Source: an uncultured Pseudomonadota bacterium (GTDB lineage Bacteria > Pseudomonadota > Alphaproteobacteria > Rhizobiales > Xanthobacteraceae). Taken from it: a stretch of 64,000 bases of DNA. The translations under genes were made by a program, and so were the position numbers. The stretch is taken from positions 192,005 through 256,004 of the forward strand of contig CAVTBG010000009.1 of the NCBI GenBank assembly GCA_963732895.1, read 5' to 3'. Shown piece after piece: positions 13,016-29,658 of the stretch. Within the stretch, counting starts at the first letter, position 1, and the number at the start of each line of letters is the position of its first letter. Under the pieces are notes generated by a model. It searched no databases. It had not been told where the DNA came from and saw nothing but the letters and a program-made list of their open reading frames with translations.

Positions 13016-13086
13016 TTCACCAGCCCGGGGCCACCCGTCAAGCGAAGCTTATTTCCGGGACGGGCGCGGCCCGCCAGGCCAAACCC

Positions 13087-14013: not shown

Positions 14014-14466
14014 TTATAAAACCTCGAATACGTCGAGCCGCACCGCCAGCGCCTCGCGCTGACCCCGGGCGATGGCCAGGATGCGGTTGAGCCAGGAGGC
14101 TCCAGGGTCCGACGTTTCGAACCGCATCACTGTGCGGAAGTAATAGCTGGCCGGGTCAACGGGCTCGCCGCGCGCCAGCGCCGCCAGTACGTCCGGGGGG
14201 CCGTGCCGTAGGCCGGCGCTATTGACCAGGACGCGTCCGCCGGTTGCGGTCTCGATGGTGTAGCGGGCCTGGATGTCGGCGGCTCCGTCGGTCCGGATGA
14301 TCTGCCAGTCAGCGCCGCCGCGCAGGACCTTGCCTTGCAGCCGGGGGCCTTGCACGGTGCCGCCCAGAATGTCGATGATGCGGCGCTCGCCGTAGGGCGT
14401 GGGGCCGAGATTGAGCATCGGCGCAAGCTCGGCCTTGATGGTGAAGATCGGTTCTTGTCCCAGCAT
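14014..14466 (-). CDS. DUF3237 (UPF0311) family protein
   Basis: GERRIIDILGG, GGADWQ, YFRTVMRFET pattern. Confidence 0.8.
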   Translation of the reverse strand: MLGQEPIFTIKAELAPMLNLGPTPYGERRIIDILGGTVQGPRLQGKVLRGGADWQIIRTDGAADIQARYTIETATGGRVLVNSAGLRHGPPDVLAALARGEPVDPASYYFRTVMRFETSDPGASWLNRILAIARGQREALAVRLDVFEVL

Positions 14467-14739: not shown

Positions 14740-15600
14740 ATGGCGCGCATTTCGTCTCTCGCCGAAGCCATCGCCGCAGCCGTCCGCGACGGCGATACTG
14801 TGGCCGTGGAAGGCTTCACGCACCTCATTCCGCATGCGGCGGGTCATGAGATCATCCGTCAGGGTCGAAAAGCTCTGACCCTCATCCGCATGACGCCGGA
14901 CCTCGTCTACGACCAGTTCATCGGCATGGGCTGCGTCGACAAGCTGATCTTTTCGTGGGGCGGAAATCCGGGCGTCGGCTCGCTGCACCGCTTCCGCGAT
15001 GCGGTCGAGAACGGCTGGCCGCACAAGCTCGAGATCGTCGAGCACTCCCACGCCGCCATGGCCAATGCCTATGAGGCCGGCGCCGCCGGCTTGCCCTGCG
15101 CGGTATTCCGCGGCTATATCGGCGGCGACCTGCCCAAGGTCAATCCGAACATTAAGTACATCACTTGCCCGTTCACCGGCGAGAAGCTCGCCGCCATACC
15201 GGCGCATCGGCCGGACGTGGCGGTGATCCATGCCCAACGCGCCGACAAGGCCGGCAACGTGATGATCGAAGGTGTGCTCGGTGTGCAGAAGGAGGCAGTG
15301 CTCGCCTCGCAGCGCTCGGTGGTGACGGTCGAAGAGATCGTCGACGAGTTGCCGGAGCGTAGCCTCAATGCGGTGGTATTGCCGCACTGGACCGTTGGTC
15401 ATGTCGTCGAGGTGCCGGGCGGCGCCTTCCCCTCGTATGCGCAAGGCTATTATCCGCGCAACAACGGTTTCTACAAGCAGTGGGATACGGTCTCGCGCGA
15501 GCGTGACAGCTTCCTCACCTGGATGAAAGAAAACGTGCTGGAGAGGGGCCCTGACGCCTTCGCCCAGTATGCGCGCAAACACCGCGCGGCGGCGGAGTGA
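14740..15600 (+). CDS. pcaI: 3-oxoadipate CoA-transferase subunit A (CatI/GctA type)
   Basis: EGFTHLIPHAAGHEIIRQ, FSWGGNPGVGSLHR, SYAQGYYPRNN; pca context. Confidence 0.9.
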   Translation: MARISSLAEAIAAAVRDGDTVAVEGFTHLIPHAAGHEIIRQGRKALTLIRMTPDLVYDQFIGMGCVDKLIFSWGGNPGVGSLHRFRDAVENGWPHKLEIVEHSHAAMANAYEAGAAGLPCAVFRGYIGGDLPKVNPNIKYITCPFTGEKLAAIPAHRPDVAVIHAQRADKAGNVMIEGVLGVQKEAVLASQRSVVTVEEIVDELPERSLNAVVLPHWTVGHVVEVPGGAFPSYAQGYYPRNNGFYKQWDTVSRERDSFLTWMKENVLERGPDAFAQYARKHRAAAE

Positions 15601-16379
15601 CGACCATGGCCGATTACAAGCCCAATGAAATGATGACTATCGCGGCCGCGCGCGCGCTCAAGAACGACGACGTCTGCTTCGTCGGCATCGGCATGCCGTC
15701 GGCAGCCGCCAATCTCGCGCGCCTGACGCACGCGCCGGATATCACCTTGATCTACGAATCCGGCACGCTCGCCACCAAGCCCAACGTACTGCCGCTTTCG
15801 ATCGGCGACGGAGAACTCTGCGAAACAGCGGTCACGACTGTGTCGGTGCCGGAGATGTTCCGCTACTGGCTGCAGGGCGGGCGCATCAAAGTCGGCTTTC
15901 TCGGCGGCGCGCAGATCGACAAGTTCGCCAACCTCAACACCACCGTGGTCGGCGGCTCCTACGACAAGCCGAAAGTGCGCCTGCCCGGCGGCGGCGGCGC
16001 GCCGGAGATCGCCACCTCGTGCGGCGAAATCTTCATCATCATGGCGCAGTCCAAGCGCGGCTTTGTCGACAAGCTCGATTTCGTCACGTCGATCGGCCAC
16101 GTTACCGGCGGCGATAGCCGACAGAAACTGGGCGTGAAAACCAAAGGCCCGACGCGATTGATCACCGACTTGGCGCTCTTGGAGCCGGATCTGGAGAGCA
16201 AGGAGATGACCGTCGTCTCCATCCACCCGGGCGTCACGCGCGAGCAGATTCAGGAAAACACTGGGTGGGACGTAAAATTTGCCGCTCACGTCGCGGAAAC
16301 GCCGCCACCGACGGCTAAGGAACTCGAAGTCCTGCGCGAACTGCAGGCGCGCACCGCGCGCGCCCATGCGGCGGCGTGA
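15597..16379 (+). CDS. pcaJ: 3-oxoadipate CoA-transferase subunit B (CatJ/GctB type)
   Basis: CFVGIG, LIYESG (catalytic Glu), RLPGGGGAPEIA. Confidence 0.9.
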   Translation: MTTMADYKPNEMMTIAAARALKNDDVCFVGIGMPSAAANLARLTHAPDITLIYESGTLATKPNVLPLSIGDGELCETAVTTVSVPEMFRYWLQGGRIKVGFLGGAQIDKFANLNTTVVGGSYDKPKVRLPGGGGAPEIATSCGEIFIIMAQSKRGFVDKLDFVTSIGHVTGGDSRQKLGVKTKGPTRLITDLALLEPDLESKEMTVVSIHPGVTREQIQENTGWDVKFAAHVAETPPPTAKELEVLRELQARTARAHAAA

Positions 16380-16394
16380 GCAAAGGGGTAGAAC

Positions 16395-17600
16395 ATGCGT
16401 GAAGCTTTCATCTGCGATGCGGTGCGGACGCCGATCGGCCGCTATGCCGGCGGCCTCGCCAAGGTGCGCGCCGACGATCTCGGCGCCATCCCGATCAGGG
16501 CGCTGATCAAGCGCAACCCCAAGATTGATTGGGAGAAGCTCGACGAGGTGTTCTACGGCTGCGCCAATCAGGCCGGGGAGGACAACCGCAACGTCGCACG
16601 CATGGCGCTTCTGCTCGGCGGGCTGCCCGACAACGTGCCGGGCGTGACGCTCAATCGCTTGTGCGCCTCCGGCATGGAGGCGGTGGGCGCCGCCGCCCGC
16701 GCCATCCGCGCCGGCGAAATGGATTTCGCCATCGCAGGCGGCGTCGAATCCATGACTCGCGCGCCCTTCGTGCGAGGCAAGAGCGACGAGGCCTTCTCGC
16801 GTAAGGTCGAGGTCTTCGACACCACCATCGGCTGGCGTTTCGTCAATCCGCTGATGAAGCAGCAATACGGCATCGACTCGATGCCGGAGACCGGTGAGAA
16901 CGTGGCCGAGGAATTCCAGGTCAGCCGCGCCGATCAGGACGCGTTCGCGTTGCGCTCGCAGCAGCGCGCCGCCAAGGCGCAGGCCGACGGCTATTTCGCC
17001 GCCGAGATCGTGCCGGTGGAGATCGCTGGCCGCAAGGAGACGGTGACCGTCGATATGGACGAGCATCCGCGGCCGCAGACCACGCTCGAGCAACTCGCCA
17101 AGCTGAAGACGCCGTTCCGCAACCCCGGCACAGTCACTGCCGGCAATGCTTCCGGCGTCAACGACGGAGCCGCCGCCGTGATCGTCGCTTCGGAAGAGGC
17201 GGTGAAGGCGCACGGGCTGACGCCGCGTGCGCGCGTGCTCGGCATGGCCTCGGCGGCGGTGCCGCCGCGCATCATGGGCATCGGGCCGGTGCCGGCGTCT
17301 CAAAAATTGATGGCGCGCCTTGGGCACAAGATCGGTGACTATGATTTGATTGAGATCAACGAGGCCTTCGCCTCGCAGTCGCTAGCTTGCCTGCGCCAGC
17401 TCGGCCTTCCGGACGATGCGGCCCAAGTCAATCCGCACGGCGGAGCGATTGCGCTCGGCCATCCATTGGGCATGTCGGGTACCCGCTTGGTGCTGACGGC
17501 CGCGCACGGGCTTGAAACGCAGGGCGGCAAGCTAGCGCTTGCCACCATGTGCGTCGGTGTCGGTCAAGGCGCATCGCTGGCCATCGAGCGAGTCACCTGA
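16395..17600 (+). CDS. pcaF: 3-oxoadipyl-CoA thiolase
   Basis: CANQAGEDNRNVARM, NRLCASG, DTTIGWRFVNP, GHPLGMSG, MCVGVGQG. Confidence 0.95.
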   Translation: MREAFICDAVRTPIGRYAGGLAKVRADDLGAIPIRALIKRNPKIDWEKLDEVFYGCANQAGEDNRNVARMALLLGGLPDNVPGVTLNRLCASGMEAVGAAARAIRAGEMDFAIAGGVESMTRAPFVRGKSDEAFSRKVEVFDTTIGWRFVNPLMKQQYGIDSMPETGENVAEEFQVSRADQDAFALRSQQRAAKAQADGYFAAEIVPVEIAGRKETVTVDMDEHPRPQTTLEQLAKLKTPFRNPGTVTAGNASGVNDGAAAVIVASEEAVKAHGLTPRARVLGMASAAVPPRIMGIGPVPASQKLMARLGHKIGDYDLIEINEAFASQSLACLRQLGLPDDAAQVNPHGGAIALGHPLGMSGTRLVLTAAHGLETQGGKLALATMCVGVGQGASLAIERVT

Positions 17601-17633: not shown

Positions 17634-18341
17634 ATGTCGCTGATCTATCCGAGGGAGAGCCTCAGTGCTTTTCCCAAGCACTTGAGCCCCGAGTACCGCA
17701 GCACGGTGAAGCGCTCGCCCTCGAAGCCGCTCATCCTCGTGCCGCACACGCTGTCGGAATTGACCGGCCCGGTCTATGGTCACGACTCGGTGCAGGAAGG
17801 CGATAACGACCTCACCAAGCAGCACAAGGGCGAGCCGCTCGGCGAGCGCATCATCGTGCACGGTCATGTGCTCGACGAGGACAAGCGCCCGCAGCCCGAT
17901 ACGCTGGTGGAGATCTGGCAGGCCAACGCCTGCGGCCGCTATGTGCACATTGTCGACCAGCACCCGGCGCCGCTCGATCCCAACTTCACCGGCGGCGGGC
18001 GCACCGTCACCGACGAGAACGGCTATTACCGCTTCGTGACTGTGAAGCCGGGCGCCTATCCGTGGGGCAATCACCACAACGCCTGGCGGCCCAACCACAT
18101 CCACTTTTCGGTGTTCGGCCACTCGTTCCTGTCGCGGCTGGTCACACAGATGTATTTCCCCGGCGATCCGCTGTTCCCGTTCGATCCGATCTTCAACTCG
18201 GTCACTGACGAGAAGGCGCGCCAACGCATGGTCTCGAGCTTCGACCTGGAAAACACCATCCCCGATTGGGCGCTCTGCTTCCGCTTTGACATCGTGCTGC
18301 GCGGGCGCGAGGCCACTCCTCTCGACACGGATAAGCACTAG
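17634..18341 (+). CDS. pcaH: Protocatechuate 3,4-dioxygenase beta chain
   Basis: EIWQANACGRY, PGAYPW, WRPNHIHFS Fe-ligand motifs. Confidence 0.97.
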   Translation: MSLIYPRESLSAFPKHLSPEYRSTVKRSPSKPLILVPHTLSELTGPVYGHDSVQEGDNDLTKQHKGEPLGERIIVHGHVLDEDKRPQPDTLVEIWQANACGRYVHIVDQHPAPLDPNFTGGGRTVTDENGYYRFVTVKPGAYPWGNHHNAWRPNHIHFSVFGHSFLSRLVTQMYFPGDPLFPFDPIFNSVTDEKARQRMVSSFDLENTIPDWALCFRFDIVLRGREATPLDTDKH

Positions 18342-18403: not shown

Positions 18404-19018
18404 ATGTCGGACATCACCCCTTCGCAGACCGTTGGCCCGTACTTCGCCTACGGCCTTACGCCCAAGGGCCGTTGCCAATGGGATCCCAACGGCAGCTATA
18501 GCTGGAAGGAAACCGTCAGCGACAATCTCGTCACCCCCGACGCCAGCGGCGAGCGCATCCACATCGAAGGCACGGTGTTCGACGGTGACGGCCAACCGAT
18601 CAACGACGCCATGATCGAGATCTGGCAGGCAGACAGCCAAGGGCGCTACGCCAGCCCGTATGACAGCCGCGCGCTGCCGAACACCCGCTTCAAAGGCTTC
18701 GGCCGCTCGGCCACCGACAAGAACGGTGTCTACAGCTTCGACACCATCAAGCCGGGCGCGGTGCCGGGCCCGGAGGGCAAAGCCCAAGCTCCACACATCG
18801 TTGTCGCCGTGTATTCGCGCGGCATGCTCCGGCAGATTTATACGCGACTGTATTTTTCCGACGACGCGGCCAACCAAACTGATCCCATTCTAGCGCTGGT
18901 GCCGGCAGACCGGCGTGGGACGCTCATTGCCCACAAGGAGGCGAAGGGCGGCCAGACAATCTACCGCTTCGACATCCGCGTTCAGGGCGAAAACGAAACG
19001 GTTTTCTTCGAAGTCTAG
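18404..19018 (+). CDS. pcaG: Protocatechuate 3,4-dioxygenase alpha chain
   Basis: TPSQTVGPYF, EIWQADSQG, QAPHI, RGML...TRLYF, ETVFFEV. Confidence 0.96.
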   Translation: MSDITPSQTVGPYFAYGLTPKGRCQWDPNGSYSWKETVSDNLVTPDASGERIHIEGTVFDGDGQPINDAMIEIWQADSQGRYASPYDSRALPNTRFKGFGRSATDKNGVYSFDTIKPGAVPGPEGKAQAPHIVVAVYSRGMLRQIYTRLYFSDDAANQTDPILALVPADRRGTLIAHKEAKGGQTIYRFDIRVQGENETVFFEV

Positions 19019-19040
19019 CGATTTCCTGTCGGGATCAGGA

Positions 19041-19071
19041 CAGAGGCGGGCGATCAGGACGCCCGCCTCTG
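19041..19071 (+). terminator. 12-bp perfect stem-loop after pcaG (terminator-like, no clear U tract)
   Basis: cagaggcgggcg-atcagga-cgcccgcctctg. Confidence 0.5.
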
Positions 19072-19305
19072 CCCACATATCTTGACCGAATAGTGGGCAA
19101 AGCCCATTACGTTCATCATCTGCCTCGCTATAGCTCGACATTTTTGACCGCGAATCTGCTTAAAAGTAGTCCGTCTCCTTCGTTCACTCCTGCCCATCCA
19201 CTGTGCCCAACTTTTCCAAATATTGTTTTGTGGTTGACGCCGCCCGTTTGGCTTGGTTCGCTAAGCGCATTAATCGGCCATCGAGAGCCGTACTGGGAAA
19301 CGCGC

Positions 19306-20721
19306 ATGAACGAGCAAATTCTCCAGGAGATCAGCGACTTTTGCCGCCAGCGCGGGCTCGCCAAATCCACCTTCGGCCGCCGCGCGGTGAACGACGGCAA
19401 GCTCGCGAGCCGCTTGCGTAGCGGTGGCCGCATCACCACCGACACGCTGGAGCGCATCCGCTCCTTTATGGCCAGCAACGCCGATGGCGCGCCGGCCCGC
19501 CGACGCGTGCTGTTCGATCCCGCGCCACCGCCGGCACAGACGTTGCCGGTGCTGACGCCACCGGCGCCGCCGGTCGCCTCGGGCCAGGCCAGCGACGACC
19601 CGCAGCGCAATTTCCGCTTCTTCGACAATCGGCAGAAATATCTTCTGTTCGTGAACACCTGCTCGGAGAAGTGGGAGGTCGCCAACCGCGTCAGCCTCGA
19701 GCTCGCCAACATCCATCCGCGCCCGCCGGCGGTGCGCGTGTTCGACGCCGGTGTCGGCGATGGAACCGTGCTCGCGCGCGTGATGCGCACCATGCACGAC
19801 CGCTTCCCCACGATGCCATTCTATATCGTCGGCAAGGAAATCAGCCTGGAGGACGTCCGCCTCACGCTCAATAAGGTCGCCGACCGCTTCGTCGAGCATC
19901 CCTCGACTGTGCTGGTACTCACCAACCTCGCTTATGCCGACGCGCCCTGGCTAGCGGTGAAGTCCTTGAGCGCGGCCTCGAGCCTGGTGTGGAAAGAAGT
20001 GGCGATGGAGGGCAACACCGCCCACGCCTTCGAAAAGCAGATCTCTGACCTCGAACCGTTCCTGGCGGAAGCCTGGAAGGCGGGCGTGTCGCCGAAGAGC
20101 GGCAACCCGGTCTATGAGCGGCCCGTCATCCTGGTGATCTACCGCAACGACCACCGCTTCCTGCTCGACCAGATCGTGCCCAAGCCGGGCGGCACCGTTG
20201 CCGACTACGATCTGGTGATCGCCTCGCAGCCTTATCGCGCGCGCGCCTCGCTTCAGTTCAAGGCCAAGCGCGTCCTGGCGCCGCTTGCGCGCGCGCTCGG
20301 GCCGGGCGGGCGTATGATCGCCATTCATTCCTACGGCCATGATCCCGGCATGGAGATCATCCATAAGGTTTGGCCGGGCGACGATCCGTTCAACCACAGC
20401 CGCCACGACCTGCTCAAGGAAGTGAAGCACGAATTGGGGGCGGCCGGCCGCGATCTCAATTTCAATGCCTATTCCGATCAGCGCTCGCTGTTCCGCTACG
20501 ACATGCACACGCTGCCGTCGGAAATCTCCAATTCGATCGGCACCTCCACGCTGCTCGCAGCCTGGAATGCGGCGATCTACGTGGCGCAGATCGAGGACGA
20601 CCGGCTCTCCGACGTCAACAGCGACCGCCGCTACATCGAGGCCACACGTGAAGCGCTGCAGAAGAACGGCGGGCTCTGGTTCTACGACGAGTCCTTCGTG
20701 ATCTCGCACCGGCGGGAGTGA
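19306..20721 (+). CDS. N-terminal Cro/XRE-like HTH fused through a Pro-rich linker to a class I SAM-methyltransferase-like domain (uncharacterised)
   Basis: 471 aa; STFGRRAVNDGKLASRLRSGG helix-turn-helix-like segment, PAPPPAQTLPVLTPPAPP linker, VFDAGVGDG (motif I), VGKEIS (motif II), YDLVIASQPY (motif IV-like). Confidence 0.75.
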   Translation: MNEQILQEISDFCRQRGLAKSTFGRRAVNDGKLASRLRSGGRITTDTLERIRSFMASNADGAPARRRVLFDPAPPPAQTLPVLTPPAPPVASGQASDDPQRNFRFFDNRQKYLLFVNTCSEKWEVANRVSLELANIHPRPPAVRVFDAGVGDGTVLARVMRTMHDRFPTMPFYIVGKEISLEDVRLTLNKVADRFVEHPSTVLVLTNLAYADAPWLAVKSLSAASSLVWKEVAMEGNTAHAFEKQISDLEPFLAEAWKAGVSPKSGNPVYERPVILVIYRNDHRFLLDQIVPKPGGTVADYDLVIASQPYRARASLQFKAKRVLAPLARALGPGGRMIAIHSYGHDPGMEIIHKVWPGDDPFNHSRHDLLKEVKHELGAAGRDLNFNAYSDQRSLFRYDMHTLPSEISNSIGTSTLLAAWNAAIYVAQIEDDRLSDVNSDRRYIEATREALQKNGGLWFYDESFVISHRRE

Positions 20722-21617
20722 GCGCCATGGAGGACCTGATGACGCTCGACACTGCGCCCGCGCTCGCGCCGGACCGGCTCGCGCGGCGCTTCTCGCTCGA
20801 AGCCACCCGGCCGACGGCCGACGAAATTGCGCGACTGGCCGATACCGTGCCGGCCGGCACCATGATCTATCTCACCGCGGTACCGAACCAGTCCGCGGCC
20901 GAACTGAGCGAAGCCGCCGCGCGCCTGCGTCAGGCCGGACTGGAGCCGGTCGCCCATATCGCCGCCCGCCGGCTGACAAGCCTCGATGAATTGCACGGCC
21001 TGCTGAAAGCCTTGCGCGGCGAAGCGGACATGCGCCGCCTGCTGGTGATTGGCGGCGACATCGACGCCAGCGGCCCGTTGCCCGATGCGCTGGCGGTGAT
21101 CCGGCAGGGCAATTTGCGCGGCCTCGGCTTTGAGGAAATCGGTATCGGCGGCTATCCGGAACCGCACCCGCGCATCGCGCCGGGGCGGCTCGAAGCCGCG
21201 CTCGACGAGAAGATCGCGCACGCGGCGGCGCAGGGCTTGCGTGTCCACATCGTGAGCCAGTTTTCGTTCTCGCCCGAGCGCATCCAGGCCTGGCTCAGGC
21301 AATTGCGCGGCTGCGGCATCACATGGCCGGTGCGGGTCGGCCTGGTCGGTCCCACCAGCGTGCCGGCACTGTTGCGCTTTGCCCGCCGCTGCGGGGTCAA
21401 TGCTTCGCTACGCGGGCTGGCTTCCGGGGTCGCCACCAGCCTGGTCGGCCATGTCGGGCCCGGCCGCATCATCGATGCGCTGTCGGCGGCCGACGATCTG
21501 GGCGATGTTGCCCTGCATTATTTTTCCTTCGGCGGAACAGTTGAAACCGCACGCTACGCGTGCCAAGCCGCTGCGGGACGGCGCGATGCCCATCGTGCTA
21601 TGGCTCACCCCAATTAA
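20718..21617 (+). CDS. metF: Divergent methylenetetrahydrofolate reductase (MetF-like flavoprotein)
   Basis: SLEAT, VAHIAARR, LVIGGD, GGYPEPHP, VSQF correspond to the MetF Glu/His/Asp/Gln motifs; GTGA overlap with the upstream gene. Confidence 0.75.
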   Translation: MSAMEDLMTLDTAPALAPDRLARRFSLEATRPTADEIARLADTVPAGTMIYLTAVPNQSAAELSEAAARLRQAGLEPVAHIAARRLTSLDELHGLLKALRGEADMRRLLVIGGDIDASGPLPDALAVIRQGNLRGLGFEEIGIGGYPEPHPRIAPGRLEAALDEKIAHAAAQGLRVHIVSQFSFSPERIQAWLRQLRGCGITWPVRVGLVGPTSVPALLRFARRCGVNASLRGLASGVATSLVGHVGPGRIIDALSAADDLGDVALHYFSFGGTVETARYACQAAAGRRDAHRAMAHPN

Positions 21618-21667
21618 GCCAGCCCGCCGGTTACAGCGCTGGGCGGCTCCTATGCGGAGGAAAAAAT

Positions 21668-22777
21668 ATGACGCAACGGACCAAACCGCCTTTCAGCGCC
21701 GACGAGGTCGGCAGCCTGCTGCGTACCGCGCCGATCAAGGACGCGCGCGCCAAGCACGAGGCCGGCAAGATCAGCGCCGCCGAGCTCAAGGCGGTCGAAG
21801 ATCAAGAGATCAAGAAGATCATCAAGAAGCAGGAAGAAGTCGGCCTCAAGCTCGCGACCGACGGCGAATTCCGCCGATCGTGGTGGCATTTCGACTTCTA
21901 CGGCGGACTCGATAACGTCGAAATTTACGAGCTCGACCACGGCATCCAGTTCCAGGGCGTACAGACCAAACCGCGCTCGATCCGCGTCAACGGCAAGATC
22001 GGATTTTCCGATCACTACATGCTGGAGCACTTCAAGTTCTTGAAGGCGAATTGCAGCGTCACGCCCAAGATGTGCATACCGGCGCCATCGACTTTCCATT
22101 TCCGGCTTGAGCCGAACGCGGTCAGCAAGGACGCTTATGCGAACCGCGATGCCATCTTCGACGATCTCGCGGTCGCCTATCAGAACGCGATCAAGGCTTT
22201 CTATGCCGCCGGCTGCCGCTATCTGCAGTTCGACGACACGGCCTGGGCCTATCTCTGTTCGCAGGAGCAGATGCAGCAGGCGCGCGACCGCGGCCTCGAC
22301 GTCGATCACCTGCAGGACAGCTACGCCAAGTGCATCAACAAGGCACTGGAAGCCAAGCCCGCCGACATGACCGTCACCACTCATGTTTGTCGCGGCAATT
22401 TCCGCTCCACCTTCATCTCGTCGGGCGGCTACGAGCCGGTGGCCGAGACGCTGCTCGCCAAGTGCAATTACGACGGCTACTTCCTGGAATACGACACCGA
22501 CCGCGCCGGCGGTTTCGAGCCGCTGCGCTTCCTGCCCAAGGGCAACAAGATCGTGGTGCTCGGCCTCGTCACCACCAAGCAGGGTCGGCTCGAGCCGCGT
22601 GCCGACGTCAAGAAGCGCATCGAGGAGGCGACCAAGTTCGTTGCGCTCGATCAGCTTTGCCTGTCGCCGCAGTGCGGCTTTGCCTCCACCGAGGAAGGTA
22701 ACACGCTGGCCGAGGACGAGCAGTGGGCCAAGCTGCGCATGATCGTCGAACTCGCCAGCGAGGTGTGGGGCAAGTAA
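21668..22777 (+). CDS. Core-only cobalamin-independent methionine synthase-like Zn enzyme (MetE C-terminal/YxjH family), paralog 1
   Basis: 369 aa; ADEVGSLLR, TDGEFRRSWWH, HVCRGN, LEYD, SPQCGF (H-x-C...E...C Zn ligands). Confidence 0.9.
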   Translation: MTQRTKPPFSADEVGSLLRTAPIKDARAKHEAGKISAAELKAVEDQEIKKIIKKQEEVGLKLATDGEFRRSWWHFDFYGGLDNVEIYELDHGIQFQGVQTKPRSIRVNGKIGFSDHYMLEHFKFLKANCSVTPKMCIPAPSTFHFRLEPNAVSKDAYANRDAIFDDLAVAYQNAIKAFYAAGCRYLQFDDTAWAYLCSQEQMQQARDRGLDVDHLQDSYAKCINKALEAKPADMTVTTHVCRGNFRSTFISSGGYEPVAETLLAKCNYDGYFLEYDTDRAGGFEPLRFLPKGNKIVVLGLVTTKQGRLEPRADVKKRIEEATKFVALDQLCLSPQCGFASTEEGNTLAEDEQWAKLRMIVELASEVWGK

Positions 22778-22788
22778 GGCCTCCACTT

Positions 22789-22903
22789 TTCCCGGGCGCA
22801 GCGCAGCACGCTGGTGATGCGCTGCAGACCCGGGATCGTTTGCGCCTGTAGCGGACCCGGATCAGCGGTGCACCGCTATCGCGCTGCACCGCATCCGGGA
22901 CAC
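22789..22903. repeat. REPIN-like doublet of (T/G)CCCGG...GC(A/G)GTGCA-type palindromes
   Basis: ttcccgggcgcagcgcagca...tgcgctgcagacccgggat followed by the inverted partner gacccggatcagcggtgcaccgct...tgcaccgcatccgggacac. Confidence 0.8.
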
Positions 22904-22915
22904 GAGGCAACGCAT

Positions 22916-24022
22916 ATGACCCAACGCACAAAACCGCCCTTCCGCGCCGACCATGTCGGTAGTTTGTTGCGTCCGGCCGCGCTGAAGGACGCGCGCGCTC
23001 AATTTGCCAAGGGTGAGATCGATGCCGCCGCGCTGCAGCGGATCGAAGACGACGCCATCAAAGCCGTCGTGAAGAAGCAGGAGGAGGTCGGCCTCAAGCT
23101 CGCCACCGACGGCGAATTCCGCCGCTCGTGGTGGCATTTCGATTTCTTCAAGGGCCTGCAGGGCGTCGACCTCATCGAGGCGCCACCGATCAAGTTCCAC
23201 GGCGTCGTCACCAAGAGCGAGGCCATCAAGATCAACCGCAAGGTCGACTTTGCCGGCCATCCGCATCTGGAGCATTTCAAGTTCTTGAAGGCGAACTGCA
23301 AGGTTACGCCCAAGATGTGCATCCCGGCGCCGAGCACCTTCCACTTTCGCCAGGGAAGGGCGATGGTGAGCAAGGATGCCTATCCCGATATCGACGCATT
23401 CTTCGCCGACGTCGCCGCCGCCTGGAAGAAAGCGATCAAGGCGTTCTACGACGCCGGCTGCCGCTATCTGCAACTCGACGACACCGCCTGGGCGATGATC
23501 TGCGATCCCAAGGAGCGCGAGCAATCGAAGGCGCGCGGCGACGATCCCGACAAGTTGCCGGCGATCTATGCGCAGATGACCAATGCGGCGCTGGCAGACA
23601 AGCCCGCCGACATGGCGATCACCATGCACTCTTGCCGTGGCAACTTCCGTTCCACCTTTATCGCCTCAGGCGGCTATGAGTTCGTCGCCGAGCAGCTGCT
23701 CGGCAACACCAATTTCGACGGTTATTTCCTCGAATACGACACCGACCGGGCCGGCGGTTTCGAGCCGCTGCGCTTCTTCCCCAACGGCGACAAGCAGCTC
23801 GTACTTGGTCTTGTCACCTCCAAGAGCGGGCGCCTCGAGCCGCGCGACGACATCAAGAAGCGCATCGAGGAAGCGACCAAATACGTGCCGCTCGAGCAGC
23901 TCTGCCTGTCGCCGCAATGCGGCTTCTCCTCGACCGAGGAAGGCAACGTGCTGGCCGAGGACGAGCAGTGGGCCAAGCTGCGCATGATCGTGGAATTGGC
24001 CGAGGAAGTGTGGGGCCGCTGA
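22916..24022 (+). CDS. Core-only MetE-like Zn enzyme, paralog 2
   Basis: 368 aa; RADHVGSLLRP, HSCRGN, LEYD, SPQCGF. Confidence 0.9.
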   Translation: MTQRTKPPFRADHVGSLLRPAALKDARAQFAKGEIDAAALQRIEDDAIKAVVKKQEEVGLKLATDGEFRRSWWHFDFFKGLQGVDLIEAPPIKFHGVVTKSEAIKINRKVDFAGHPHLEHFKFLKANCKVTPKMCIPAPSTFHFRQGRAMVSKDAYPDIDAFFADVAAAWKKAIKAFYDAGCRYLQLDDTAWAMICDPKEREQSKARGDDPDKLPAIYAQMTNAALADKPADMAITMHSCRGNFRSTFIASGGYEFVAEQLLGNTNFDGYFLEYDTDRAGGFEPLRFFPNGDKQLVLGLVTSKSGRLEPRDDIKKRIEEATKYVPLEQLCLSPQCGFSSTEEGNVLAEDEQWAKLRMIVELAEEVWGR

Positions 24023-24024
24023 TC

Positions 24025-24117
24025 GTCGTCCCCGCGAAGGCGGGGACCCATACGCCGTGTACTATCGTTAACTGCGGAGTATGGGTCCCGGCCCTCGCTC
24101 CGCTCGGCCGGGACGAC
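24025..24117. repeat. REPIN-like doublet of GTCGTCCC...GGGACCCATA palindromes, copy 1
   Basis: gtcgtccccgcgaaggcggggacccata...tatgggtcccggccctcgctccgctcggccgggacgac. Confidence 0.88.
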
Positions 24118-24124
24118 AAACTCC

Positions 24125-25231
24125 ATGCAACGCACCAAACCGCCCTTCCGCGCCGACCATGTCGGCAGCCTGTTGCGCACCGCGCCTTTGAAAGATGCGC
24201 GTGCCAAGCACGAAAAGGGCGAGATCGACGCCGCCGCGCTCAGCGCAGTGGAAGATCTGGAAATCCAGAGGATCATCAAGCGCCAGGAGGACATCGGCCT
24301 GAAAGCCGTGACCGACGGCGAATTCCGCCGCGCTTTCTGGAATTACGACTTTCTCGGCGGGCTCGACGGCGTCGAAGCCTATCTTGGTGAGCGCAAGATC
24401 AAGTTCCAGGGTATCCAGCCCAAGCCGATGATGCTGCGGGTTACGGCTGAGCTCGGCACGTTCTCCGGCCACCCGATGATCGAGCACTTCAAATTCGTGC
24501 AGGCACACACTAAAGTCGTGCCGAAAATGACGATCCCCTCGCCGTCGTCCTTGCATTTTCGCTACGGCCGCGATGCGGTGCCGGAATCGATCTACCCCGA
24601 CATGGGCGTTTTCTACCGCGACCTCGGCGCCACCTACCGACAGGCTGTGCGCGCTTTTGCCGATGCCGGCTGCCGCTACCTGCAGCTCGACGAGGTCAAT
24701 TTCACATATCTTTGCGATCCGAAGCTGCGCGCGCAGGTGGCGAACCGCGGCGACGATCCCGAGCAGCTTCCTTCGATCTATGCCGGCATGATCAACGCGG
24801 CGATCTCCGACATCCCGGACGACATGACCATCGCCATGCATCTGTGCCGCGGCAATTTCCAATCCACGTTCGTGGCCTCGGGCGGCTACGAGCCGGTGGC
24901 GGAGATCCTGTTTAACACCATCAACGTCCACGGCTATTTCATGGAGTACGATTCCGACCGCGCCGGCGGCTTCGAGCCGCTGCGTTTTGTCCCTAAGGGC
25001 AAGACGGTGGTGCTCGGTCTCGTCACGACGAAGTCGGGGCGGCTCGAATCGCGCGACGAGCTCAAGCGCCGCATCGACGAGGCTTCCAAATACATCGACC
25101 TTGATCAGTTGTGCCTGTCGCCGCAATGCGGCTTTGCCTCAACCGAAGAGGGCAACCTGCTGGCGGAAGAGGAACAGTGGGCTAAGCTCAGGACGATCGT
25201 CGAGGTGGCGCAAGAGATTTGGGGCCGTTGA
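24125..25231 (+). CDS. Core-only MetE-like Zn enzyme, paralog 3
   Basis: 368 aa; RADHVGSLLR, HLCRGN, MEYD, SPQCGF. Confidence 0.9.
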   Translation: MQRTKPPFRADHVGSLLRTAPLKDARAKHEKGEIDAAALSAVEDLEIQRIIKRQEDIGLKAVTDGEFRRAFWNYDFLGGLDGVEAYLGERKIKFQGIQPKPMMLRVTAELGTFSGHPMIEHFKFVQAHTKVVPKMTIPSPSSLHFRYGRDAVPESIYPDMGVFYRDLGATYRQAVRAFADAGCRYLQLDEVNFTYLCDPKLRAQVANRGDDPEQLPSIYAGMINAAISDIPDDMTIAMHLCRGNFQSTFVASGGYEPVAEILFNTINVHGYFMEYDSDRAGGFEPLRFVPKGKTVVLGLVTTKSGRLESRDELKRRIDEASKYIDLDQLCLSPQCGFASTEEGNLLAEEEQWAKLRTIVEVAQEIWGR

Positions 25232-25232
25232 G

Positions 25233-25261
25233 TTATCCCTCCCCTTTCAGGGGAGGGATAA
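25233..25261. repeat. CCCTCCCC-type REP hairpin
   Basis: ttatccctcccct-ttc-aggggagggataa, 13-bp perfect stem; related hairpin at 34813. Confidence 0.75.
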
Positions 25262-25284
25262 AAAAGTGCAGGGAGAGAAACAAA

Positions 25285-26385
25285 ATGTTGCGCACCGTTC
25301 CCCCCTTCCGCGCCGATCATGTCGGCAGCCTCTTGCGCCCGGCCGCGCTCAAAGAAGCGCGCGCGCAATTCGCCAAGGGCGAGATCGATGTCGCCGCGCT
25401 GAAAGCGGTCGAAGACCACGAGATCGAACGCGTCATCAAGAAGCAGGAGGAAGTCGGGCTTAAGAGCATCACCGACGGCGAGTTTCGCCGTTCGTGGTGG
25501 CATCTCGACTTCCTATGGGGGCTCGATGGTGTGGAGAAGCACGTGATGGATGCGGGCGTCGCGTTTGCGGGCGTCAACACCCGCAACGAGGGCGTCAAGG
25601 TCACCGGTAAGATCGACTCTTCCCATCATCCGATGATCGAGCATTTCAAGTTCGTCGCCGCGCACACCCGCCGCACACCCAAGATCACCATCCCGGCGCC
25701 CTCGGCGCTTTATGGGCGGCCCATGCGCCCGCCGATTGACGGGAAGATCTATCCGAAGCTCGACAAGATGTTTGAGGATCTCGGCCAGGCATACAAAAAG
25801 GCCGTGCGCGCCTTCGCCGATGCCGGCTGTCGTTACCTGCAACTCGACGAAGTCTTCATCGCCATGCTGTGCGACGAAAAATACCGCCAGCAGATGAAAG
25901 ACCGCGGCGATGACCCGCAGAGGCTCGGCGAGCTTTACGGCGATCTCATCAACATGGCGATGTCGGACATCCCGTCCGATATGCGCATCACCATGCACAT
26001 GTGCCGCGGCAACTATCGCTCGACCTTCATGGGCTCGGGCGGCTACGAGGCCGAACAGGACATCCTGTTCAACCGCATCAAGGTGCACGGCTACTTCATG
26101 GAGTACGATTCGGACCGCGCTGGCGGGTTCGAGCCGCTGCGTCTCGTACCAAAAGACCGTCAGGTCGTGCTGGGCCTGGTCACCACCAAGACCGGGCGGC
26201 TTGAAACGAAGGACGATCTCAAGCGCCGCATCGAGGAAGCGGCCAAATACATTTCGCTCGACCAGCTTTGCCTCTCCCCGCAATGCGGCTTCGCCTCGAC
26301 GGAAGAGGGCAACACGCTCGCCGAAGAAGAGCAGTGGGCCAAGCTGCGCATGATCGTCGAATTAGCGGAAGAGGTGTGGGGTTGA
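25285..26385 (+). CDS. Core-only MetE-like Zn enzyme, paralog 4
   Basis: 366 aa; RADHVGSLLRP, HMCRGN, MEYD, SPQCGF. Confidence 0.9.
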   Translation: MLRTVPPFRADHVGSLLRPAALKEARAQFAKGEIDVAALKAVEDHEIERVIKKQEEVGLKSITDGEFRRSWWHLDFLWGLDGVEKHVMDAGVAFAGVNTRNEGVKVTGKIDSSHHPMIEHFKFVAAHTRRTPKITIPAPSALYGRPMRPPIDGKIYPKLDKMFEDLGQAYKKAVRAFADAGCRYLQLDEVFIAMLCDEKYRQQMKDRGDDPQRLGELYGDLINMAMSDIPSDMRITMHMCRGNYRSTFMGSGGYEAEQDILFNRIKVHGYFMEYDSDRAGGFEPLRLVPKDRQVVLGLVTTKTGRLETKDDLKRRIEEAAKYISLDQLCLSPQCGFASTEEGNTLAEEEQWAKLRMIVELAEEVWG

Positions 26386-26391
26386 GTTGCG

Positions 26392-26499
26392 GTCGTCCCC
26401 GCGAAAGCGGGGACCCATAACCCCAGTCTTGCAAAACAAGCGCAGTCCGTGGTTATGGGTCCCGGCTCGCGCTCGCTTCACTCGCTTGGCTGGGACGAC
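26392..26499. repeat. REPIN-like doublet of GTCGTCCC...GGGACCCATA palindromes, copy 2
   Basis: gtcgtccccgcgaaagcggggacccataa...ttatgggtcccggctcgcgctcgcttcactcgcttggctgggacgac. Confidence 0.88.
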
Positions 26500-26505
26500 A
26501 AGAAG

Positions 26506-27363
26506 ATGCCTCTCGACCCCGAAAAACTCCTCGCTCTGCAAATCCCTGACGTTGAGCACGTCTATGGCCCGCGCGATTGCATTGTGTACGCGCTCGGTAT
26601 CGGCCTCGGCCAGGATCCGGTGAACGAAAACGAGCTCGCGTTCGTCTACGAAAAAAATCTCAAAGTGCTCCCGACCTTCGCGCTGGTGCAGGGCTACGCC
26701 GCCTATTTTCTGCGACGGCAGGAACTGGGCGTCACCTGGAGCCATGTGGTGCACGGCGAACAGGCCGTTGTCCTGCACAAGCCGGTGAAGCCGGAGGGTA
26801 CGGTGATCGGCCGCACGCGCATCCTCGACGTGGTCGACAAGGGCGTCGGTCGTGGCGCGCTGGTCTATTCGGAGCGTGGGATCATCGACAAGCATAGCGG
26901 CGAACTGCTTGCCACGCTCAACCAGACCACGTTCTGCCGCGCTGATGGCGGCTTCGGGGGCGCGAAGCGCGACACACTGCCGCCGCACGCGCTGCCCGAG
27001 CGCGCGCCTGACGCGGTGGTCGATCTGCCGACGCGGCCGGAAATGGCGCTGATCTATCGGCTATCCGGCGACGTCAACGCGCTGCACGTCGACCCCGAAT
27101 ACGCTCGCGTGGCGGGCTTCCCGCGCCCGATCCTGCATGGGCTTGCCACGTTCGGCGCGGCGGGGCATGCCTTGCTGAAACAAGTGTGCGGCTACGATCC
27201 TGCCCGGCTCACTGCCATGGCCGGCCGCTTTTCGGCGCCGGTCTATCCGGGCGAGACCATTCGCACCGAAATCTGGCGCGACGGCGGCGTGGCGAGTTTC
27301 CGCGCTCGCGTCGTCGAACGCGACGTGGTGGCGATCAATAATGGCCGCGCGGAGGTAAGGTGA
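26506..27363 (+). CDS. MaoC-family (double hot-dog) (R)-specific enoyl-CoA hydratase
   Basis: YALGIG, VVHGEQ, YRLSGDVNALHVDP, PILHGLATFG. Confidence 0.9.
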   Translation: MPLDPEKLLALQIPDVEHVYGPRDCIVYALGIGLGQDPVNENELAFVYEKNLKVLPTFALVQGYAAYFLRRQELGVTWSHVVHGEQAVVLHKPVKPEGTVIGRTRILDVVDKGVGRGALVYSERGIIDKHSGELLATLNQTTFCRADGGFGGAKRDTLPPHALPERAPDAVVDLPTRPEMALIYRLSGDVNALHVDPEYARVAGFPRPILHGLATFGAAGHALLKQVCGYDPARLTAMAGRFSAPVYPGETIRTEIWRDGGVASFRARVVERDVVAINNGRAEVR

Positions 27364-28535
27364 CGATGGCGAAAGCCGACCACAGATACGAAGACCATGC
27401 CGATATCCGCGAGGGCGTGCGTGCGCTCTGCGCCCGCTTCCCCGGCGAATACTGGCGTACGCTCGACCGCGAGCGGGCCTACCCGACCGAGTTTGTCGCC
27501 GCGTTGACGGAAGCCGGCTATCTCGCGGCCCTCATCCCGGAAGACTACGGCGGCAGCGGCCTCGGCATCAGCGCCGCCGCCGCGATCCTGGAGGAGGTGC
27601 ACCACGCCGGCGGCAACGGCGCGGCCTGCCACGCCCAGATGTATACCATGGGCACAATTCTGCGGCACGGCTCGCCCGCGCAGAAGCAGGACTATCTGCC
27701 GCTCATCGCCAGCGGCGAGCTGCGCCTACAGGCCTTCGGCGTCACCGAGCCGACGTCGGGCACCGACACGCTTTCCCTGCGCACCACCGCGCGCAAGGAA
27801 GGCGACCATTACGTCATCAATGGCCAGAAAATCTGGACCTCACGCGCCGAGCATTCCGACCTGATGCTGCTGCTGGCGCGCACCACGCCGCGCGAACAGG
27901 TCGAGAAACGCACAGATGGCTTGTCGGTGTTTCTGGTCGACATGCGGCTCGCGCTCGGCACCAGTATGACCATCACGCCGATCCGCACCATGATGAACCA
28001 CGCCACAACGCAGATCTTCTTCGACGATCTGCGCGTGCCGGCGGAAAATCTGATCGGCGAGGAAGGTAAGGGCTTCCGCTACATCCTGTCAGGCATGAAT
28101 GCGGAACGAATCCTGATCAGCGCCGAATGCATCGGCGACGCCAAATGGTTCATCGACAGGGCGACGAATTACGCCAAGGAGCGCGTGCTGTTCGGCCGGC
28201 CCATCGGGCAGAACCAGGGCGTTCAGTTTCCGATCGCGCGCGCCTATGCGCAGATGCGCGCCGCCGAACTGATGGTGCACGAGGCCGCGCGCCGCTACGA
28301 GGCCGGCGAAGACATCGGCGAGCAGGCCAATATGGCAAAGTTGCTCGCCGCCGACGCCTCTTGGGCCGCCGCCGACATGTGCGTGCAGACCCACGGCGGC
28401 TTCGGCTTCGCCGAGGAATACGACATCGAGCGCAAATTCCGTGAGGCGCGGCTTTACCAGGTGGCGCCAATCTCCACCAACATGATCCTGTCTTACCTGG
28501 CCGAGCACGTGCTCGGCCTGCCACGGTCGTATTGA
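27360..28535 (+). CDS. Acyl-CoA dehydrogenase
   Basis: AFGVTEPTSGTD, INGQKIWTSRA, GMNAERI, QTHGGFGFAEEY. Confidence 0.95.
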   Translation: MTMAKADHRYEDHADIREGVRALCARFPGEYWRTLDRERAYPTEFVAALTEAGYLAALIPEDYGGSGLGISAAAAILEEVHHAGGNGAACHAQMYTMGTILRHGSPAQKQDYLPLIASGELRLQAFGVTEPTSGTDTLSLRTTARKEGDHYVINGQKIWTSRAEHSDLMLLLARTTPREQVEKRTDGLSVFLVDMRLALGTSMTITPIRTMMNHATTQIFFDDLRVPAENLIGEEGKGFRYILSGMNAERILISAECIGDAKWFIDRATNYAKERVLFGRPIGQNQGVQFPIARAYAQMRAAELMVHEAARRYEAGEDIGEQANMAKLLAADASWAAADMCVQTHGGFGFAEEYDIERKFREARLYQVAPISTNMILSYLAEHVLGLPRSY

Positions 28536-28536
28536 A

Positions 28537-29658
28537 ATGACGCTTCCGCTTGAAGGCCTCCTCGTCGTCTCGCTCGAACAGGCGGTGGCCGCGCCGACCT
28601 GCACCTGCCGCATGGCCGACGCCGGCGCGCGCGTCATCAAGATCGAGCGCCCGGAGGGTGACTTCGCCCGCGGCTACGACACGCTGGTGCACGGTGAGAG
28701 CGCCTATTTCGTCTGGCTCAACCGCGGCAAGCAGTCAGTCGTGCTCGACCTCACCACGGACGATGACAAGGCGCTGCTCGAAGCCATGCTCGCCAAGGCC
28801 GACGTCTTCGTGCAGAACCTCAAGCCGGGGACCGTCGCCAAGCTCGGCTTCGCCATCGAACGGCTGCGCAAAGATTATCCGAAGCTGATCTGCTGCTCGA
28901 TCTCCGGCTACGGCGAGAGCGGCCCTTACGCGCAGCGCAAGGCCTATGACCTGTTGATCCAGGCCGACAGCGGACTGTCGTCGGTCACCGGCGGACCGGA
29001 AGCACCGGCCCGTGTGGGCGTGTCGGTGGTTGATGTCGCCACCGGCATGAACGCCTACGAGGCGGTCCTCGAAGCGCTGATCGCCCGCGGCCGCACCGGC
29101 GAAGGCTTAGCCGTCAGTGTGTCGATGTTCGACGCCATGGCCGATTGGATGACGGTGCCGTTGCTGCACACCGAGGGCGGCAAGCCGCCGCAACGCATCG
29201 GCCTCGCCCATCCCTCGATCTCGCCCTATGGTGTGTTCAAGAGCCGCGAAGGCGGCGATATTTTGATTTCGATCCAGAATGACCGCGAATGGCGCGTGCT
29301 GGCCGAGAAGGTCATGGGCGATTCCGCGCTCGCCGCCGATCCAGGCTTTGCAACCGTGATCCAGCGCGCCAACCGCCGCAGCGACACTGACGGACGTGTG
29401 CAGGCGGCGTTTGGGTCAATGGACGTCGCTGAACTCGAGAAGAAACTGGCTGCCGCGGACATCGCCTATGCGCGGGTCAACGACACCAGTCTGCTGGCCA
29501 AGCACCCGCACCTGCGCCGGATCATGGTCGATACGCCGACCGGCCCGGCCTCACTGCCCGCGCCGGCCCCGGTGCGCTCCGGCGAGCCGCGCCGTTACGG
29601 CGCGGTCCCGGCGCTCGGCGAGCATACGGAGATGGCGCGGAAGGAATTCGGCGGCTGA
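28537..29658 (+). CDS. CaiB/BaiF family III CoA-transferase
   Basis: LEQAVAAP, GARVIKIERP, WLNRGKQS, YDLLIQA. Confidence 0.95.
   Translation: MTLPLEGLLVVSLEQAVAAPTCTCRMADAGARVIKIERPEGDFARGYDTLVHGESAYFVWLNRGKQSVVLDLTTDDDKALLEAMLAKADVFVQNLKPGTVAKLGFAIERLRKDYPKLICCSISGYGESGPYAQRKAYDLLIQADSGLSSVTGGPEAPARVGVSVVDVATGMNAYEAVLEALIARGRTGEGLAVSVSMFDAMADWMTVPLLHTEGGKPPQRIGLAHPSISPYGVFKSREGGDILISIQNDREWRVLAEKVMGDSALAADPGFATVIQRANRRSDTDGRVQAAFGSMDVAELEKKLAAADIAYARVNDTSLLAKHPHLRRIMVDTPTGPASLPAPAPVRSGEPRRYGAVPALGEHTEMARKEFGG

Follow-up and report, generated by a model that had tools for sequence, protein, structure and literature searches.

Four diverged MetE-like paralogues of the YxjG/YxjH family in an aromatic-catabolic locus of an alphaproteobacterium

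Why would a bacterium keep four tandem copies of a gene whose family is routinely annotated as methionine synthase? The question is raised by a 64,000-nucleotide stretch of DNA from an uncultured member of the Xanthobacteraceae (Alphaproteobacteria; positions 192,005 to 256,004 of contig CAVTBG010000009.1, in the 4.78-Mb, 15-contig assembly GCA_963732895.1), which is referred to as the window. A four-gene array in the window encodes single-barrel relatives of MetE, the cobalamin-independent methionine synthase, here named P1 to P4. An original prediction, made from the sequence alone, described four tandem open reading frames (ORFs) of 366–369 residues, divided them into two active-site subtypes and suggested that they had been retained for substrate diversification rather than dosage. 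The four ORFs were found exactly where they had been placed:

21668–22777, plus strand: P1, 369 residues; motifs DDTAW, WWHFDF and STFHFR; NF005085 score 590.9 bits
22916–24022, plus strand: P2, 368 residues; motif type as in P1; NF005085 score 574 bits
24125–25231, plus strand: P3, 368 residues; motifs DEVNF, FWNYDF and SSLHFR; NF005085 score 544.5 bits
25285–26385, plus strand: P4, 366 residues; motifs DEVFI, WWHLDF and SALYGR; NF005085 score 525 bits

We show below that P1–P4 are four functionally distinct, long-kept members of the YxjG/YxjH family, which share a zinc/homocysteine half-site, have diversified donor half-sites and lack the folate contacts of MetE.

Fold and active site of the four paralogues

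Each ORF is preceded by its own Shine-Dalgarno-like sequence and starts with a conserved N-terminus (M-x-R-T-x-P-P-F-R-A-D), from which the lengths given above were counted. Pairwise identities range from 59 to 69% (P1/P2, 69%; P3/P4, 66%; cross pairs, 59–63%). The only Pfam match is PF01717, the catalytic barrel of cobalamin-independent methionine synthase. All four proteins exceed the cut-off of 313 bits set for NCBIfam model NF005085 (PRK06520, YxjG/YxjH), with rounded scores of 591, 574, 545 and 525 bits, and the cut-off was likewise exceeded in the control genomes of B. subtilis and L. lactis. The MetE model TIGR01371 yields 38–44 bits versus a cut-off of 930, and the models of other short methionine synthases (PRK04326, PRK09121, PRK00957 and PRK08575) yield 19–96 bits, far below their cut-offs. 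These short-synthase models presumably correspond to some of the Mes families of core methionine synthases. The PRK06520 family comprises at least 1,302 clusters at 50% identity (E ≤ 1e-30).

The solved structure closest to P1 is that of a Listeria YxjH-like protein, PDB 1YPX (phmmer E 3e-132, residues 7–369). An AlphaFold2 (AF2) model of P1 (pLDDT 83, pTM 0.87) superimposes on 1YPX with TMt 0.91 and a root-mean-square deviation of 2.8 Å, and matches the C-terminal barrel of T. maritima MetE with TMq ~0.77. P1–P4 are single-barrel, MetE-like zinc enzymes of the YxjG/YxjH (PRK06520) family.

We aligned a profile built from the paralogues with T. maritima MetE, for which residue roles were taken from Pejchal and Ludwig (PMC539065). 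In this enzyme, Ser411, Glu462 and Asp577 contact homocysteine, and Trp539 and Glu583 contact the pterin. The homocysteine contacts correspond to S16, E67 and D189 in the paralogues, and the H-x-C/E/C zinc ligands noted in the original prediction are intact in P1–P4 as H239-x-C241, E274 and C336. These three residues and the four zinc ligands are invariant in all five family members of the genome (P1–P4 and P5, which is encoded elsewhere), and are nearly invariant in 26 alphaproteobacterial homologues. The last 70 alignment columns are the best conserved: 48 of the 70 are invariant in P1–P4, and pairwise identities reach 74–84%, in keeping with the conserved C-termini first described.

The donor side presents a different picture. 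Three motifs vary among the copies, and the sequences first quoted for them are exact: QFDDTAW, QLDDTAW, QLDEVNF and QLDEVFI in P1 to P4, respectively; WWHFDF, WWHFDF, FWNYDF and WWHLDF; and STFHFR, STFHFR, SSLHFR and SALYGR. The D-D/E position of the first motif had been equated with the homocysteine-binding site of MetE. This is correct for the invariant first residue, D189, which aligns with Asp577, but not for the variable D/E190, which is equivalent to Glu578, the neighbour of the homocysteine-binding aspartate. The DMV turn of MetE (467–469) becomes W72-W73-H74, within the WWHFDF motif. The place of Trp539, which stacks on the pterin in MetE, is taken by the invariant R146, which closes the STFHFR motif, and the pterin-binding Glu583 aligns with Y, M, Y and M in P1 to P4. 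The folate-binding N-terminal barrel of MetE is absent from these 366–369-residue proteins. To judge from the alignment, all three variable motifs occupy positions that in MetE form the methyl-donor side.

The G+C content is 61–66% over most of the window. No Rfam family reached its gathering score in the 64 kb, and no SAM (S-adenosylmethionine) riboswitch or T-box was found in 18900–26600 even at E ≤ 1; control of the array by a methionine/SAM riboswitch was rejected on this basis. Terminator- and promoter-like matches do not exceed the frequency seen in shuffled sequence, and the intergenic gaps contain none. A sub-threshold match to the Ruegeria Cis2 sRNA, antisense within P2 (23650–23794, minus strand; 28.7 bits, gathering score 50, E 0.008), is most likely due to chance.

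Orthology, selection and donor-side divergence

To judge from the names given to its nearest database proteins, the assembly is Pseudolabrys-like. The PRK06520 family is present in all 24 same-genus genomes searched, mostly as arrays of two to five genes. We compared the loci of 12 relatives, in which genes were called by a simple heuristic based on ORFs and third-codon-position G+C (GC3). The genes are arranged in the same order in the 12 loci, i.e., pcaIJ, thiolase, pcaHG, the gene unk471, a gene for a methylenetetrahydrofolate reductase (MTHFR)-like protein, P1–P4, a MaoC-type hydratase or short-chain dehydrogenase/reductase (SDR), acyl-CoA dehydrogenase and CoA-transferase III. All four copies occur in order in 7 of the 12 relatives. 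The others have lost P1 (G005), P3 (G018), both P3 and P4 (G017 and G010) or all copies except P1 (G009); here and below, G, C and L numbers denote genomes, contigs and loci, respectively.

Each paralogue of the window is 70–90% identical to its positional counterparts, versus 54–71% to the other copies. In a maximum-likelihood tree, the sequences form four orthologue clades: P1 (12 rows, support 98), P3 (10 rows, support 98), P4 (10 rows, support 100) and P2, which also forms a clade of its own. Because the relatives carry 1:1 orthologues in the same order, and each copy has its own clade, the comparison indicates that the duplications are older than the genus. Median pairwise dN/dS ratios within clades (P1, 0.16; P2, 0.16; P3, 0.10; P4, 0.12) indicate that all four lines are under purifying selection.

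The two active-site subtypes, originally recognised from the motifs, correspond to a phylogenetic split. The tree unites P3 with P4 as sisters (SH-aLRT 95) and places P1 and P2 in one group with Listeria 1YPX, which joins the P1 clade. The underlying motif types, DD[TV] and DE[VT], recur across other Alphaproteobacteria. One relative, G014, features a fifth array member (L015:10651–11757), a fast-evolving P3-like copy with an end branch of 0.44, in which the DMV-equivalent turn reads SWQTDF and E-N-R-R replaces E-F-R-R.

An identical stretch shared by P1 and P2 near their 3′ ends had also been reported. It exists, at 22705 and 23950, but measures 42 nt rather than 41, and forms a run of 13 codons. 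Simulations that preserved the shared residues and a synonymous codon identity of 65%, as observed, reached such a run in 8% of trials (P = 0.08). The run is within the expectation from codon bias and identical residues, and was rejected as evidence of recent gene conversion between P1 and P2.

In a comparison of 44 orthologues, 31 positions differ between clades although each clade conserves them to at least 90%. Sites were mapped by loop position, with barrel-strand ends from the DSSP string of the P1 AF2 model, together with homology to MetE ligand contacts, serving as a proxy for three-dimensional distance. Ten of the 31 clade-fixed differences fall in the 42 residues that follow strands 2–4, versus 21 in the other 327 residues (odds ratio 4.6, p 9e-4), the windows being defined by loops, not by three-dimensional distances, and drawn once the motifs were known. 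The loops after strands 1 and 5–8, which form the zinc/homocysteine side, contain 3 clade-fixed sites in 70 residues, 40 of which are invariant. By this proxy, the variable residues do not lie away from the active site, which would have spoken against the original suggestion, but are enriched in the donor-side loops. Within the limits of sequence comparison, diversification of substrates rather than dosage is supported, as originally suggested, because the clades are separate, each is under purifying selection, and the fixed differences are concentrated on the donor side.

The same data bear on the possibility that P1–P4 are redundant or condition-specific isozymes with one shared donor, such as a methyl-corrinoid protein or methyl-tetrahydrofolate (methyl-THF), their loops reflecting kinetics, regulation or drift. 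P1–P4 do not differ in any catalytic residue, methylcobalamin can serve as the donor for characterised core MetE enzymes in vitro (PMC7005905, PMC7857596), and the loss of one to three copies in some congeners suggests partial dispensability. Nevertheless, the clades are separately conserved (dN/dS 0.10–0.16) with their fixed differences on the donor side, and the same two motif types recur in other bacterial families. In addition, Pfam and NCBIfam scans found no corrinoid protein gene in the cluster, and methionine is already supplied by MetH and a PRK09121-type synthase. We consider isozymes with a common donor to be quite improbable.

Neighbouring genes

The genes surrounding the array are the following:

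6629–13959, minus strand: hydroxycinnamate-type beta-oxidation set (enoyl-CoA hydratase, two CoA ligases, thiolase, SDR and thioesterase; Pfam)
14014–14466, minus strand: DUF3237 protein (E 2e-43), located between the beta-oxidation-type operon and the pcaIJ genes
14740–17600, plus strand: pcaIJ-like CoA-transferase subunits and a thiolase of the beta-ketoadipate lower pathway; synteny conserved
17634–18341, plus strand: pcaH, protocatechuate 3,4-dioxygenase
18404–19018, plus strand: pcaG, protocatechuate 3,4-dioxygenase
19306–20721, plus strand: unk471, a helical N-terminal domain (1–57), a disordered Pro-rich linker and a class I SAM-methyltransferase fold
20718–21617, plus strand: type-4-like MTHFR (PDB 7XG9, E 1.6e-55, 40% identity over 265 residues)
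26449–29658, plus strand: MaoC-type hydratase, acyl-CoA dehydrogenase and family III CoA-transferase (Pfam), directly downstream of the array

The locus is an aromatic-acid catabolic island. PcaH matches the beta chain of PDB 2PCD (E 8e-71), pcaG is a 36% paralogue of pcaH, and the pair lies beside the array in all 12 relatives. Subunit A of the CoA-transferase belongs to the glutaconate CoA-transferase family (E 4e-28); the accompanying thiolase was called by reading its translation. MarR, TRAP transporter and IorA-like genes (Pfam) are located farther upstream of the beta-oxidation set. On the other side of the array, the three CoA-ester genes have overlapping or adjacent starts and stops and are kept downstream of the array in relatives. 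A 304-residue SDR replaces the MaoC-type hydratase in some of these (L021:9891–10805, L022:5408–6322 and L023:5680–6714), which makes the set of CoA-ester genes behind the array a variable module.

Aromatic genes also accompany family members in other alphaproteobacterial families, in a sample of about 30 loci. For instance, a PRK06520 gene lies downstream of LigB and FAA hydrolase genes, on one strand and with overlapping stop and start (L065), and another lies between HpaB and a glyoxalase/VOC-superfamily protein in a one-strand cluster (L060). Two copies with a binding protein between them lie next to a pcaB-pcaG-pcaH-hydrolase (pcaB-G-H-D) group in L066. Other members follow a Rieske oxygenase (L064) or an O-methyltransferase (L059), or lie near Amidohydro_2 and FAA hydrolase genes (L053 and L052). 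Periplasmic binding proteins of the Peripla_BP_6 family (LivJ-like) occur in or beside several PRK06520 arrays (L016:8430–9713 and L017:9486–10763, plus strand; L066:6200–7462 and L037:5636–7132, minus strand); in G005 and G015, such proteins are inserted between P2 and P3.

The MTHFR gene directly upstream of the array starts 4 nt inside the end of unk471. Among solved structures, its product comes closest to 7XG9, the S6MTHFR of Sphingobium SYK-6, with an E-value of 1.6e-55, versus 5e-5 for canonical MTHFRs (Thermus MTHFR). Type 4 S6MTHFR oxidises methyl-THF, scarcely reacts with reduced nicotinamide adenine dinucleotide (NADH), and works alongside LigM and other THF-dependent demethylases (Yu et al. 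2025, PMC11868366). The markers that block NADH binding in type 4 enzymes are Leu48-Pro49, Arg78 and Pro268 (PMC11868366). In the window MTHFR this motif is kept in part: R78 is retained, V-P replaces L48-P49, and S-F replaces P268-F269. The gene is kept at 61–81% identity in all 12 relatives, and a separate canonical metF adjoins metH on contig C1. An independent instance of an MTHFR gene paired with a MetE-like one comes from an alphaproteobacterial family unrelated to this one, in which the nearest homologue of the window MTHFR (47% identity) immediately precedes a PRK06520 gene encoded on the same strand (G090:C143:1069–3108).

LigM itself is found at the same locus in some congeners. In G005 and G009, a true equivalog of this vanillate/3-O-methylgallate O-demethylase separates the MTHFR gene from the array (NF047885, 744 and 751 bits; cut-off 580) and lies on the strand opposite to both (L016:5595–7022 and L018:4677–6080, both minus strand). 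Overall, LigM is present in 19–23 of 101 congeners and, by coordinates, occurs at this locus also in G003, G007 and G021. G005 lacks P1 and G009 retains only P1, but replacement of lost paralogues by LigM was rejected, since G007 has LigM together with all four copies. The pairing of a type-4-like MTHFR with a methyl-THF-forming demethylase is thus seen in some congeners, whereas no known enzyme of that kind is encoded in the present genome: neither a VanA-type nor a LigM/DesA-type gene was found, and the only PF01571 match is a weak one elsewhere.

These findings could be explained if P1–P4 were THF-dependent demethylases, which would pass the methyl group directly to THF as LigM and DesA do, feed the type-4-like MTHFR and make no use of homocysteine. 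The MTHFR is kept in all 12 relatives even though 78–82 of the 101 congeners, as well as the present genome, lack LigM; the class to which it is related works with methyl-THF-forming demethylases (PMC11868366); and the G090 arrangement places its homologue next to a PRK06520 gene. However, the paralogues have neither the pterin contacts Trp539 and Glu583 nor the folate-binding N-terminal barrel, and the family-wide invariant homocysteine triad would be left without explanation. Moreover, co-occurrence of PRK06520 genes with type-4-like MTHFRs across the class is not significant (odds ratio 1.6, p 0.17), and the MTHFR link is therefore limited to the subset with adjacent genes. Direct transfer to THF seems to us unlikely.

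The second partner, unk471, has no sequence match in Pfam, NCBIfam or PDB. Its AF2 model (pLDDT 80) has as its best Foldseek match histamine N-methyltransferase (E 8e-9), followed by RoqN/OxaG and GtmA/TmtA, so that the modelled fold most resembles those of small-molecule N-, O- and S-methyltransferases. The protein is 82–90% conserved within the genus, and homologues with 40–67% identity were found in 29 of 300 sampled Alphaproteobacteria; about one-third of the homologues are devoid of the N-terminal ~95 residues. PRK06520 genes occur in 19 of the 29 genomes with unk471 versus 26 of the 271 others (odds ratio 18, p 4e-11), and unk471 is present in 11 of the 14 genomes carrying three or more PRK06520 copies (odds ratio 55). 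These genomes come from many families, and the p-values are inflated by phylogenetic non-independence. In six genomes belonging to five other families (G065, G245, G119, G121, G213 and G280), unk471 adjoins a type-4-like MTHFR; in G340, it adjoins another MTHFR. The protein may be either an enzyme or a SahR-like sensor.

The MetE superfamily includes XecA and EtnE, which add coenzyme M to epoxides. Neither coenzyme M biosynthesis nor alkene monooxygenase genes were seen among the window genes. By analogy, P1–P4 could be zinc-thiolate alkyltransferases rather than methyltransferases, joining homocysteine or another thiol to a reactive aromatic intermediate. The existence of such enzymes within the superfamily, and the location of the array among aromatic catabolic genes able to yield electrophilic intermediates, fit this idea. 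Yet the locus is tied to one-carbon handling by the type-4-like MTHFR, by LigM in congeners and by the protein with a SAM-methyltransferase fold, and the closest relatives, the YxjH proteins, are methionine-regulated. We regard thiol alkylation as very improbable.

In total, the genome encodes 12 single-barrel MetE-superfamily ORFs. Besides the array, these are:

C8:185441–186544, minus strand: P5, a fifth PRK06520 member
C15:381061, C14:13115, C1:238453, C4:234221, C10:50557, C15:543975 and C6:415063–416103: seven more distant members

Four of the seven belong to a group of ~380–390 residues (‘ILTTHxGSLPR...’), and three are MetE-C-terminal-like. One of the latter is a PRK09121 equivalog (542 bits) that follows a gene read by eye as a flavin adenine dinucleotide (FAD)-monooxygenase. 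Three apparent fusion proteins (P0244, P0248 and P0035) were considered as Rosetta stones, but are uninformative, since they proved to be gene-call extensions or merges: one begins with a spurious leader, one has acquired a LysR-type N-terminus, and one joins two paralogues that lie side by side. Ordinary methionine synthesis is covered by metH and the canonical metF, plus the PRK09121-equivalog core synthase. The array is not needed for it.

Proposed function and comparison with known systems

What, then, might the four proteins do? We propose that each uses zinc to activate homocysteine, which it would then methylate to give methionine, and that each would take the methyl group from a different non-folate donor. 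Homocysteine, rather than THF, is taken as the acceptor because the homocysteine triad is conserved. From the genomic context, the donors would most likely be methoxylated lignin-derived aromatic acids. The reaction would be an O-demethylation yielding catechols for PcaHG-type ring cleavage; demethylation of methoxylated aromatics is suggested because congeners keep LigM here, because the MTHFR is type-4-like, and because PcaHG would be fed. That P1–P4 are homocysteine S-methyltransferases with different, probably methoxy-aromatic, methyl donors is a reading of sequence and context that we think could equally well prove right or wrong.

With homocysteine as the acceptor, the type-4-like MTHFR of a genome that lacks LigM would be left without a source of methyl-THF. 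Since unk471 co-occurs with PRK06520 genes and usually adjoins an MTHFR, it is, speculatively, a candidate to supply it: the methyl group of methionine would enter SAM, unk471 would pass it from SAM to THF, and the MTHFR would then oxidise the resulting methyl-THF, returning the methyl group to the folate pool. We hold it possible, but doubtful, that PRK06520/YxjH-type proteins form a further class of aromatic O-demethylases, working without oxygen, folate or corrinoid, whose paralogues split methoxy substrates or successive methoxy groups among themselves and which unk471 and the MTHFR serve as a methyl shuttle.

Several points weigh against methoxylated aromatic donors, in addition to the loop-based definition of the donor-side windows and the incomplete type 4 motif of the MTHFR described above. 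A literature search found no demonstrated reaction or donor for any PRK06520/YxjH member, and no paper tying the family to O-demethylation. To our knowledge, the attack of a zinc thiolate on an unactivated aryl methyl ether has no enzymatic precedent. Stoichiometric production of methionine in catabolism needs a recycling route, which is only hypothesised here. About half of the contexts sampled in other genomes are not aromatic and are uninformative. Finally, the yxjH gene of Firmicutes responds to methionine through T-box/S-box control and shares a transcript with luxS (PMC6004538), which points to methionine supply and not to catabolism.

This regulation would fit diversified homocysteine methyltransferases whose donors are onium or otherwise activated methyl compounds carrying a carboxylate, used in the manner of BHMT and Bmt; candidates include glycine or proline betaine, dimethylsulfoniopropionate (DMSP), S-methylmethionine and trigonelline. 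The chemistry would be far easier than ether cleavage, and Bmt enzymes are documented to make methionine from such donors without a cofactor (PMC12366255). Trp, Phe and Tyr abound in the donor-side loops, which also include the acidic D/E190, and the invariant R146 could hold the carboxylate. Against this, no betaine, choline or DMSP transporter or catabolic gene lies beside family members in the ~30 loci; ring-cleavage and ring-hydroxylating enzymes recur instead, and LigM shares the locus in congeners. Onium donors therefore appear to have only a small chance of being the natural substrates, and methoxylated aromatics are retained as the working proposal.

Whatever the donors, the locus amounts to a natural experiment, in which four old copies combine identical catalytic and homocysteine residues with different donor-side loops. 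If methoxylated aromatics were the donors, the array would open a route by which lignin-derived compounds undergo the rate-limiting O-demethylation independently of oxygen, folate and corrinoids, and would account for the three to six copies found in many soil Alphaproteobacteria. Even with other donors, the four proteins offer a panel for finding the methyl donors of YxjG/YxjH, and unk471, with a methyltransferase fold and no family match, is a second concrete target. Three observations are new. First, the four genes form an ordered array across the genus, with 1:1 orthologues and a donor-side divergence that has been quantified. Second, the MTHFR beside them has been identified as type-4-like, and congeners carry LigM at this locus. 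Third, PRK06520 is linked, by phylogenetic profile and adjacency, to a methyltransferase-fold protein lacking a family match.

Two literature leads were set aside: DmtS of Novosphingobium is VanA-like and not MetE-like, and the domains fused to MetE in Phaeocystis are polyketide synthase (PKS)- and CzcO-like and bear no relation to the cluster. MesA–D (Price et al. 2021) and the core-MetE of Dehalococcoides (Deobald et al. 2020) are likewise relatives of MetE with one barrel, which do not bind folate and take the methyl group from other donors. They appear to be different, distantly related families; the NCBIfam models of other core synthases give P1–P4 at most 96 bits, and P1–P4 have no corrinoid protein or MesX-like partner in their cluster. 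Price et al. 2021 do not treat YxjG/YxjH, and the paper was set aside as a lead on YxjH function.

Compared with MetE (EC 2.1.1.14), P1–P4 have the same fold as its C-terminal barrel, the same set of zinc ligands and the same Ser/Glu/Asp homocysteine triad. They differ in having no N-terminal barrel, in the replacement of Trp539 by an invariant Arg, in the lack of conservation at the Glu583 position and in the change of DMV to WWH or variants thereof.

The YxjG/YxjH proteins of B. subtilis and Listeria (1YPX) share with P1–P4 the single barrel of ~370 residues and identical zinc and homocysteine-type residues. The ‘DEV’ subtype formed by P3 and P4 differs from 1YPX in all three donor-side loops. 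In Firmicutes, the genes are single or paired, under S-box/T-box control and linked to luxS. Here, in contrast, four diverged copies occur in a fixed order, without a riboswitch, behind a type-4-like MTHFR gene and a gene for a SAM-methyltransferase-fold protein, within an aromatic catabolic island.

A parallel in gene organisation is the ligM-metF-ligH cluster of SYK-6 (Sphingobium lignivorans). No ligH-like gene was seen in the window cluster, and the folds differ, since LigM has a GcvT fold (PF01571; NF047885 or NF047633) and P1–P4 have the MetE fold. In both systems, however, genes for demethylation, known in SYK-6 and proposed here, are placed beside a type 4 or type-4-like MTHFR and protocatechuate catabolism.

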